From the IMG/VR virus record IMGVR_UViG_3300012932_000063: 64,000 nucleotides of DNA. One strand, 5' to 3'. Origin of the DNA: a virus. This document shows, in pieces, positions 13,689 through 14,769 of the stretch (positions within the stretch are counted from its first letter, which is position 1; each line of letters starts with the position of its first letter). The notes below the pieces were generated by a model. It did no database searches. It worked only from the letters and a program-made list of their open reading frames with translations, and was not told where the DNA came from. The position numbers and the translations under genes were made by a program.

Positions 13689-13752
13689 TAACTGGACAAT
13701 CAATTGGGAATATGGTAGGATATAGCCTCAAAACAAAAATTTGAGGTGCAAA

Positions 13753-14007
13753 ATGGGAAATAAATTGAGGAAAGAAAAGAAGTCATCAACTTTAGAGGAT
13801 ATAATGACTACCCTAAATTCAGAATTAGATGACATAAGAAAAGAATTAGGTGATTCAAACAAATACTCTAATCTTGATACTTTTTCTGAGACAATAATTC
13901 GATTGCGTAATCTGGTGGAGGCGTACCAAAAAACCAACGATCTTTTTCAGGCAATGAGTCCCATAAAGCGACTTCTTCGTCGGAAGGCTCGTAAAAACCA
14001 GAACTAG
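13753..14007 (+). CDS. Hypothetical protein, + member of overlapping pair 1
   Basis: Own promoter TGGACA-17-TAGGAT and GAGGTG RBS; paralogue 14309-14623. Confidence 0.7.
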   Translation: MGNKLRKEKKSSTLEDIMTTLNSELDDIRKELGDSNKYSNLDTFSETIIRLRNLVEAYQKTNDLFQAMSPIKRLLRRKARKNQN

Positions 14008-14074
14008 GTATATACGGTGCAATATTCTTTCTTTTAAATTTGGATATTAACCAACAAATTGGACAATTTTTCAT
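13868..14074 (-). CDS. MKNCPICWL protein, - member of overlapping pair 1
   Basis: AGGAG RBS, minus promoter TTGACT-17-TAACGT; paralogue 14430-14672. Confidence 0.65.
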   Translation of the reverse strand: MKNCPICWLISKFKRKNIAPYIPSSGFYEPSDEEVALWDSLPEKDRWFFGTPPPDYAIELLSQKKYQD

Positions 14075-14149
14075 CTTGAAGTATCTCCTAAAATAATAAT
14101 GGGAGGCAAACGTTATAGCGTGATGAAAAATTAGTCAATAATTTTCAGG

Positions 14150-14241
14150 AAAAGTATCTGGGCGGATATTTTCTGCCCCGTAGCGGCGACTATGGCATAC
14201 CCCCTCGGCACTTGCGGATAATGTTCCCACGAGGAACAAAA
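14150..14241 (+). ncRNA. Orphan TnpB omegaRNA-like scaffold 2
   Basis: AAAAGTATCTGGG hairpin, CCCCGTAGCGGCG..ATGGC, AATGTTCC..GGAACAAAA as in 40012-40034. Confidence 0.7.
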
Positions 14242-14308
14242 TAATTAACTGGACAATCAATTGGGAATATGGTAGGATATAACCTCAAAACAGATTTTGA
14301 GGTGCGAC

Positions 14309-14623
14309 ATGACGAATAAATTGCGAAAAGAAAACAATATATCCCCTCTCGACTCAATCATGAATATTCTGAATTGGGAATTGAATAATATAACAAAAGA
14401 ATTAAATGACCCGAAAAAATATAAAGATATTAAGACTTTTTCAAATTTAGTAAAGCGGCTTGACGTGGTGGCGGACCACTACCGAGATGCCAACGCTCTT
14501 CTTGAGGCAATGAGTCCCATAATGCTAAAGTTTCGTCAGTTTCTCCAAGAAAGAAATCAGCAGAACAACCAAATTTCTCAGGATCAGCAGCAACAAGATC
14601 GTCAAGAAGATCAGCATAATTAA
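14309..14623 (+). CDS. Hypothetical protein, + member of overlapping pair 2
   Basis: Paralogue of 13753-14007, same promoter and RBS. Confidence 0.7.
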   Translation: MTNKLRKENNISPLDSIMNILNWELNNITKELNDPKKYKDIKTFSNLVKRLDVVADHYRDANALLEAMSPIMLKFRQFLQERNQQNNQISQDQQQQDRQEDQHN

Positions 14624-14672
14624 CAGGTTTTCTAAATTTTGACATTAACCAACAAATTGGGCAATTTTTCAT
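14430..14672 (-). CDS. MKNCPICWL protein, - member of overlapping pair 2
   Basis: Conserved ALWDSLP..RW..G.PPP with pair 1. Confidence 0.65.
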   Translation of the reverse strand: MKNCPICWLMSKFRKPVNYADLLDDLVAADPEKFGCSADFFLGETDETLALWDSLPQEERWHLGSGPPPRQAALLNLKKS

Positions 14673-14769
14673 CTTGAAGTATCTCCTAAAATAATAATGG
14701 GAGGCAAACGTTATAGAAAGATAAAAATTTAGTCAAGAATTTTCAAGGAAAGTATCTGGGAGGATTTAT

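Follow-up and report, generated by a model that had tools for sequence, protein, structure and literature searches.

The window considered here, a 64,000-nt stretch of DNA that the public gene catalogue places in a 95-kb contig, is AT-rich (~34% G+C) and phage-like, and carries seven tRNAs, a portal-like protein, an NAD ligase, helicases, methylases and two tnpB genes (tnpB1 at 10302-11483 and tnpB2 at 38780-40003). It also contains two tandem units (about 13564-14143 and 14144-14748), each with an ORF on the plus strand and a convergent ORF on the minus strand. In unit 1 these are + ORF 1 (P0001; 13753-14007, plus strand), encoding an 84-aa protein predicted to form a helical hairpin, and - ORF 1 (P0003; 13868-14074, minus strand), encoding a 68-aa protein with an N-terminal MKNCPICW motif and a C-terminal ALWDSLP..RW..G.PP motif; in unit 2 they are + ORF 2 (P0002; 14309-14623, plus strand), whose 104-aa product has a Q-rich tail, and - ORF 2 (P0004; 14430-14672, minus strand), whose product has 80 aa, with the public gene call P0007 beginning at its Met10. 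All four had been proposed by the first-pass annotation and are found exactly where it placed them, overlapping as convergent pairs; the motifs that it had reported as conserved in both frames are likewise present, the two units sharing 49% identity in the plus proteins (E 3e-21) and 42% in the minus proteins (E 3e-19). The members of a pair overlap by 140 nt in unit 1 and by 194 nt in unit 2, and their relative phase (+1/-1, +2/-3, +3/-2) is the same in both units. Two facing start codons bound a cassette of ~320 bp per unit; the start-to-start spans are 322 and 364 nt in the phage units and 331 nt in a bacterial copy described below, all of the form 3n+1, and in all three copies both frames are open across the overlap in the +1/-1 phase. 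Since the same bases would encode helix 2 of the plus protein and the C-terminal segment of the minus protein, the arrangement probably represents a true antisense overlapping gene pair.

Each gene had also been credited with a promoter of its own, a claim that is only partly confirmed: a plus-side promoter-like site is present in both units (13693-13721, plus strand, TGGACA-17-TAGGAT with TG before the -10; identical in unit 2, where the promoter scan placed it at 14250-14278, plus strand), whereas the minus-side sites were read by eye and promoter-like sites in the region are not enriched over shuffles (8 vs 6.6). The minus-side candidates are TTGACT-15-TATAAC at 14112-14138 (unit 1) and 14710-14736 (unit 2), with a 15-nt spacer that lies outside the range of the promoter scan; for - ORF 2, the scan offers TTGAAA-17-TATCTT at 14746-14718 as an alternative. 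The corresponding Shine-Dalgarno sequences are GGAG at 14085-14088 for - ORF 1 and positions 14683-14686 for - ORF 2, and the start signals of - ORF 1 fall within a repeat (14032-14167 versus 14630-14765) that is 90% identical between the units (E 5e-49). The proposal that the ribosome-binding site of the plus gene is buried in a hairpin (CCTCAAA(A)..TTTGAGG) is borne out by folding, which covers the GAGG in both units: at 13725-13747 (plus strand; -8.5 kcal/mol, 8 pairs, z -1.5) and at 14282-14303 (plus strand; -10.8 kcal/mol, z -3.3), with a stem conserved between the units and a loop that differs by an indel. A comparable Shine-Dalgarno-sequestering hairpin on the minus side (CCUCC/GGAG) was rejected (folding z +1.0). 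The facing promoter-like sites are about 380-420 bp apart; a scan of 13300-15100 found no terminator-like site on the plus strand, and on the minus strand a terminator-like element at 13597-13579 consists of the first scaffold hairpin followed by a T-run.

That scaffold hairpin belongs to the sequences that flank the gene pairs. Each unit opens with AAAGTATCYGGG, followed by a string of hairpins. The first of these segments, S1 (13564-13688, plus strand), is a tnpB-less copy of a TnpB 3' end together with an omegaRNA scaffold of five hairpins; the second, S2 (14144-14250, plus strand), is more degenerate, with two hairpins deleted and the terminal hairpin missing; and a third scaffold stub (AAAGTATCTGGG, 14749-14760), fused to a DNA methylase remnant, forms the right end of the array (14749-14860, plus strand). 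Both S1 and S2 are homologous to the final codons of tnpB2 plus the DNA that follows (39906-40034), to a free scaffold copy behind a methylase gene (19155-19293) and to a bacterial tnpB at its 3' end; S1 in particular matches 39906-39964 at the tnpB2 3' end, 19175-19270, and positions 4120-4250 of the bacterial locus L001, at the 3' end of the bacterial tnpB and downstream of it. Because compensatory changes affect 16 of the 31 predicted pairs when five scaffold copies are compared, these segments are best taken as omegaRNA-type scaffolds, and the statement that the pairs are carried between omegaRNAs proves right for the phage, where a truncated scaffold of TnpB omegaRNA type heads each unit. 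Homology of S1 and S2 stops at GGAAT/ATAAT, before a CTCyr..TTTA..GGAGAGG hairpin, and both run on into a common sequence (the same 20-mer) that holds the plus-side promoter-like site. Like the omegaRNA of IS200/IS605 TnpB (ISDra2-type), S1 and S2 have homology to a tnpB 3' end and scaffold with the hairpins kept, but they differ from it in lacking both an adjoining tnpB and the guide-proximal terminal hairpin, which is present in S3, tnpB2 and the bacterial scaffold copies; they constitute the context of the gene pair and not the gene pair itself. TnpB omegaRNA, together with TldR guide RNAs (PMC10705468), is the closest known system to these segments.

Several further features of this neighbourhood deserve mention in their own right. 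The methylase remnant (14770-14934) reads ..FEGDNLPILRGM..SVDLIYI before unrelated sequence begins, has weak PHROG methyltransferase matches, and appears to be the first ~30 codons of a decayed gene whose ATG lies within the stub at 14749-14760; an intact MTase-Mrr fusion gene is found at 17418-19151. Homology between phage tnpB1 and the bacterial tnpB ends at 11408 (L001 4133), after which the bacterial side matches S1, and the interval that seems to have come between tnpB1 and its former omegaRNA measures about 2.1 kb and takes in a three-gene block at 11565-13379. The succession TTAATCATATACAG, hairpin, TATATAATA recurs at 13488-13550, before S1, and at 17292-17355, before the methylase gene, and may be a phage terminator-promoter cassette. 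Elsewhere, four tandem 12-nt repeats at 16396-16455 encode (EGKA)n within an ORF at 16130-16558, and the ORF at 2188-2604 contains a similar stretch, EGKAE.

The history of the two units is written in the uneven divergence of their parts. A repeat spanning 13663-13969 and 14220-14525 is 73% identical (E 1e-43), its promoter and leader flank (13663-13735 versus 14220-14292) reaches 89%, and repeat probes of 25 and 31 nt recovered matches of which neither is expected by chance. The flanks of the two units are 89-100% identical despite diverged cores, the coding core between them being only about 70% identical, so that either the cores were swapped between constant flanks or the flanks were homogenised. 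In amino acid sequence unit 2 is nearer to the bacterial copy (63% identity) than to unit 1 (49%). Synonymous sites are saturated between units 1 and 2, which implies long retention of both copies. As judged from these comparisons, the cassette moves as one unit, with two old, diverged phage copies, each behind a truncated scaffold and with near-identical promoter and leader flanks, and a third copy in a bacterial locus.

A search of 5.8 billion proteins returned exactly one outside homologue per ORF, P0006 for the plus and P0008 for the minus protein, both encoded at a single locus of a bacterial contig of 2.2 Mb and of shorter contigs that duplicate it; because all of these bacterial copies are identical, they count as one independent sequence. 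The order of genes there is a 109-aa gene, a 133-aa gene, the plus ORF with the minus ORF overlapping it, and tnpB. The bacterial TnpB is 77% identical to phage TnpB1, and window positions 872-1057 are 80-84% identical to the intergenic region upstream of the bacterial operon (L001 1456-1619), two observations that together identify the bacterial locus as phage-related DNA. That intergenic cassette contains an extended -10 promoter (TGTGGTATAAT) and hairpins. Nucleotide homology between phage and bacterium at the gene pair runs from about plus codon 8 to just beyond the minus start codon (L001 2507-2822), and as far as the alignments tell, the common part is the coding cassette and not the promoters. 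The bacterial copy retains both frames in the same phase as the phage units. Between the bacterial minus ORF and tnpB, an 18-bp perfect palindrome with two back-to-back TTGACA boxes (L001 2870-2910) could act as divergent promoters and a bidirectional terminator. The sequence L002 seemed to lack the minus N-terminus, an appearance due to an assembly gap of Ns, and four long repeat proteins from a representative search were discarded as coiled-coil or TPR-like low-complexity matches. An exhaustive profile search added P0012 (77 aa, E 6e-5), a distant homologue of the plus protein that is encoded near an IS200/IS605 TnpA gene, on an 11.3-kb contig of sample ERZ25069412. Further searches yielded no additional copies: blastn at distant settings against phage GenBank records found no match, exact-pattern and peptide-pattern scans of IMG/VR found nothing, pattern scans of genome and metagenome contigs gave pattern matches of which 0 were confirmed, and the ESM Atlas gave no usable match for the minus protein and weak leads for the plus protein. 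In the protein searches, the minus protein had no relatives beyond this phage/bacterial locus type.

What, then, argues that both frames are genes? For the plus frame the support is good. In region A, the 38 N-terminal plus codons that the minus ORF does not reach, dN/dS is 0.14 and 0.53 in two comparisons and well below 1 in the third, where dS is saturated, whereas the minus phase gives about 2 over the same codons as a control; synonymous differences outnumber non-synonymous ones significantly in two of the three comparisons (Fisher p 4e-5 and 7e-5). In the bacterium, the stop codon of the preceding gene and the plus start codon overlap as TAATG, which couples the two. AlphaFold models the plus protein as a helical hairpin (pLDDT 84) with helices at residues 10-29 and 37-81, and a Foldseek search of the PDB with this model returned generic helical hairpins only, all with E above 1. 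The existence of the distant homologue P0012, which can be aligned along both helices, also speaks for the plus frame.

The minus frame probably codes as well. All three copies have its ATG and a Shine-Dalgarno sequence (GGAG in the phage, GAGGG in the bacterium), and these start signals are kept even though the DNA upstream of the bacterial minus start is unrelated to that of the phage. Over the 14 N-terminal codons that belong to the minus frame only, third positions account for 6 of the 8 changes (binomial P about 0.02); four of these six are synonymous, among them those in both Cys codons of CPIC (TGT/TGC), while both second-position changes are K/R; dN/dS is about 0.15 over these few sites. 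Each gene hence shows purifying selection in its own non-overlapped part, with the minus-side estimate again drawn from few sites. The middle of the minus protein is barely alignable (22, 36 and 29 codons) and rich in indels, yet it stays open and in frame in all three copies, for which shuffling gives a combined probability of 0.20 x 0.09 x 0.13 = 0.0023. When the plus protein is held fixed and its synonymous codons are redrawn from local usage, the minus frame is open in only 0.7%, 0.4% and 3.5% of recodings, as against 10-24% for a different open antisense frame that serves as a control. In a survey of 39 long ORFs from the window, stops occur in this antisense phase once per 13 codons, and only 4-6% of stretches of 46-64 codons are free of them. 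For the phage contig, automatic gene callers settled on the minus ORFs; among the bacterial contigs, their choice varied between the plus and the minus ORF. The control frame just mentioned, a third antisense frame in wobble-to-wobble register (13731-13946, 14260-14478 and L001 2471-2755), runs without a stop for 72-95 codons in each of the three homologues; it was rejected as a gene, its start codon not being conserved, and is best taken as a by-product, because its openness is what recoding of the plus protein composition leads one to expect.

It could nevertheless be argued that the plus ORF is the sole gene, the minus ORF being a by-product whose promoter drives a non-coding antisense RNA that regulates the plus gene. 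Such a view would account for the poor predicted fold of the minus protein (pLDDT 62), for its having homologues only at this locus, and for the behaviour of the overlap core, where the kinds of substitution match random expectation and only their rate is lowered; the existence of another antisense frame that is open merely as a by-product of the plus protein points the same way. It is difficult to reconcile, on the other hand, with the third-position bias and the synonymous Cys codon changes of the minus-only N-terminus, with start signals conserved in front of unrelated upstream DNA, with an indel-rich middle that never loses its frame, and with recodings that leave the minus frame open far less often than the control frame. 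On balance we regard this alternative as quite unlikely.

The overlap itself gives a more nuanced picture. Synonymous divergence in the plus frame (pS) is 0.70-0.77 in region A but 0.15-0.24 in the core, a drop that is significant in two of the three comparisons (p 1e-4 and 2e-3) and not in the third; a depressed synonymous rate is the textbook sign that bases serve a second function. Within the core, the minus protein is the better conserved of the two (27 of 32 residues versus 23 of 33), its dN/dS is 0.45-0.80 versus 1.1-2.1 for the plus frame, and synonymous recodings of the minus protein leave the plus frame open in 42-49% of cases. The better preservation of the minus protein and the ease with which the plus frame stays open suggest that the minus gene seems to be dominant in the overlap and that the C-terminal half of the plus protein may be only weakly constrained. 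Taken further, the same figures could mean that selection acts on the minus ORF and on the N-terminal half of the plus ORF, with the plus C-terminal half as a mere passenger, and the plus C-terminal tails, unequal in length and in one case a Q-rich low-complexity sequence, would fit this well. However, P0012 aligns over both helices and thus across helix 2 (TF..I..L..V..Y), albeit without the AMSPI motif, and AlphaFold packs helix 2 against helix 1 at a pLDDT of 86-95, which makes the passenger scenario unlikely, if less so than the preceding alternative. Could the units, finally, be nothing but decaying debris of TnpB/IS605 rearrangements without current function? Truncated omegaRNA scaffolds, the methylase remnant adjoining the array and junctions that resemble recombination scars are what such debris would leave behind; but none of the six ORFs in the three copies is broken, although synonymous divergence has reached saturation, and dN/dS is below 1 in the non-overlapped parts, so this possibility must be rated as extremely improbable.

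Coding by both frames is accordingly a likely, though by no means certain, interpretation, reached from only three independent DNA sequences. The claim that the region codes on both strands probably stands, given that an independent bacterial homologue retains the two frames and that protein-level constraint is seen in each non-overlapped part.

Far less can be said in favour of the function that was first suggested, a toxin/antidote module in which a toxic product is neutralised by the other product and/or by its antisense RNA. In Bacillus subtilis prophage regions, txpA/RatA and bsrG/SR4 are convergent, 3'-overlapping type I toxin-antitoxin pairs, and Shine-Dalgarno-sequestering hairpins are common in type I toxin mRNAs. 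The gene pair resembles these systems in its convergent transcription, its complementary 3' parts, its leader that hides the ribosome-binding site and its mobile-element-rich setting, where two copies of the module combine diverged cores with conserved flanks. The resemblance does not extend to the products: the toxins of txpA/RatA and bsrG/SR4 are hydrophobic membrane peptides and their antitoxins non-coding RNAs, whereas here both strands appear to encode soluble proteins. No hydrophobic stretch or membrane helix was found in the four phage or the two bacterial proteins, as would be expected of a small hydrophobic type I toxin, and coding signatures on both strands set the pair apart from a non-coding antisense antitoxin. 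Known antitoxins of type I do not code for protein, and the genes of type II pairs are co-directional; the genes here are convergent, and sequence and profile searches of Pfam, PHROGs, NCBIfam, PADLOC and the PDB gave no significant match for either the plus or the minus protein, which also speaks against a type II operon of known folds. Complex prediction for the plus with the minus protein scored 0.02, a value below the mark that counts neither for nor against binding. The minus protein has a single CxxC, through which an intermolecular Zn site could form. With no library match and no membrane helix, the toxin/antidote idea is without positive evidence and was not sustained; we consider it improbable, to much the same degree as the view that the plus ORF is the sole gene.

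How might two such genes be expressed from the same DNA? In each unit two promoter-like sites face each other across the cassette without a terminator between them, and since this is so, transcription of either gene should interfere with the other, both through polymerase collision and through fully complementary RNAs. If both promoters fire, each polymerase would run over the opposing promoter; complementary RNAs and polymerases that cross the opposing promoter would together favour a mutually antagonistic module. The hairpin over the plus Shine-Dalgarno sequence would add translational control as an extra brake. Control by antisense RNA would thus follow from the geometry, with promoter-like motifs as its only basis, and it is from these motifs, the Shine-Dalgarno hairpin and the geometry that we infer a cassette that would act as an either/or expression switch for its two proteins. 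Considered as a whole, a two-strand-coding cassette acting as such a switch appears to be the best explanation, to which we would assign slightly better than even credence. Perhaps the cassette goes further and forms a bistable or addiction-type module of two mutually silencing coding mRNAs that in the phage also comes under RNA-guided TnpB control, a very improbable extension in our view. TnpB1 lacks a cis-encoded omegaRNA, and because S1 and S2 both precede the same 20-mer, which holds the plus promoter, it is barely conceivable that a TnpB-omegaRNA complex could bind or cut there and so set the switch.

The pair is unusually clean for testing, as the two genes are small, of equal rank and each equipped with its own start signals, as there are three naturally diverged copies to compare, in two genomic contexts, and as single-base changes can stop one frame while remaining silent in the other; in the core, about 2-3% of single changes are synonymous in the plus frame and a stop in the minus frame, or the reverse. 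If the interpretation is true, dual-strand coding can persist through horizontal transfer, the cassette is a natural minimal convergent-transcription circuit, and an additional type of cargo exists for the DNA that accumulates around phage TnpB/omegaRNA ends.

Both aspects of the proposal have counterparts among known systems. In temperate phages, transcriptional interference between convergent promoters (pR/pL of coliphage 186, Pe/Pc of P2) leads to mutually exclusive expression. The cassette would share with these switches the face-to-face promoters and the crossing transcripts; in 186 and P2, however, only tens of bp separate the promoters, and the genes have no coding bases in common, whereas here the entire coding region lies between the promoter-like sites and neither protein is repressor-like. 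As for the coding arrangement, long antisense overlaps with conserved proteins on both strands are seldom found in prokaryotes and phages and remain a matter of dispute, and the gene pair would be an antisense overlapping pair of this known but rare kind, its dual-strand coding being likely. Antisense overlapping coding genes have been described as candidates in E. coli O157:H7 (PMC9927249) and as olg1/olg2 in Pseudomonas aeruginosa (PMC8850804). There, as here, opposite strands of the same bases encode two proteins, and the case is built on an open frame, start signals and tests for selection. In contrast to those examples, the present pair has no long 'mother' gene and consists of two small genes of similar size that overlap over 55-80% of their length, in a cassette, known from sequence alone, that has been duplicated and travels between phage and bacterium.
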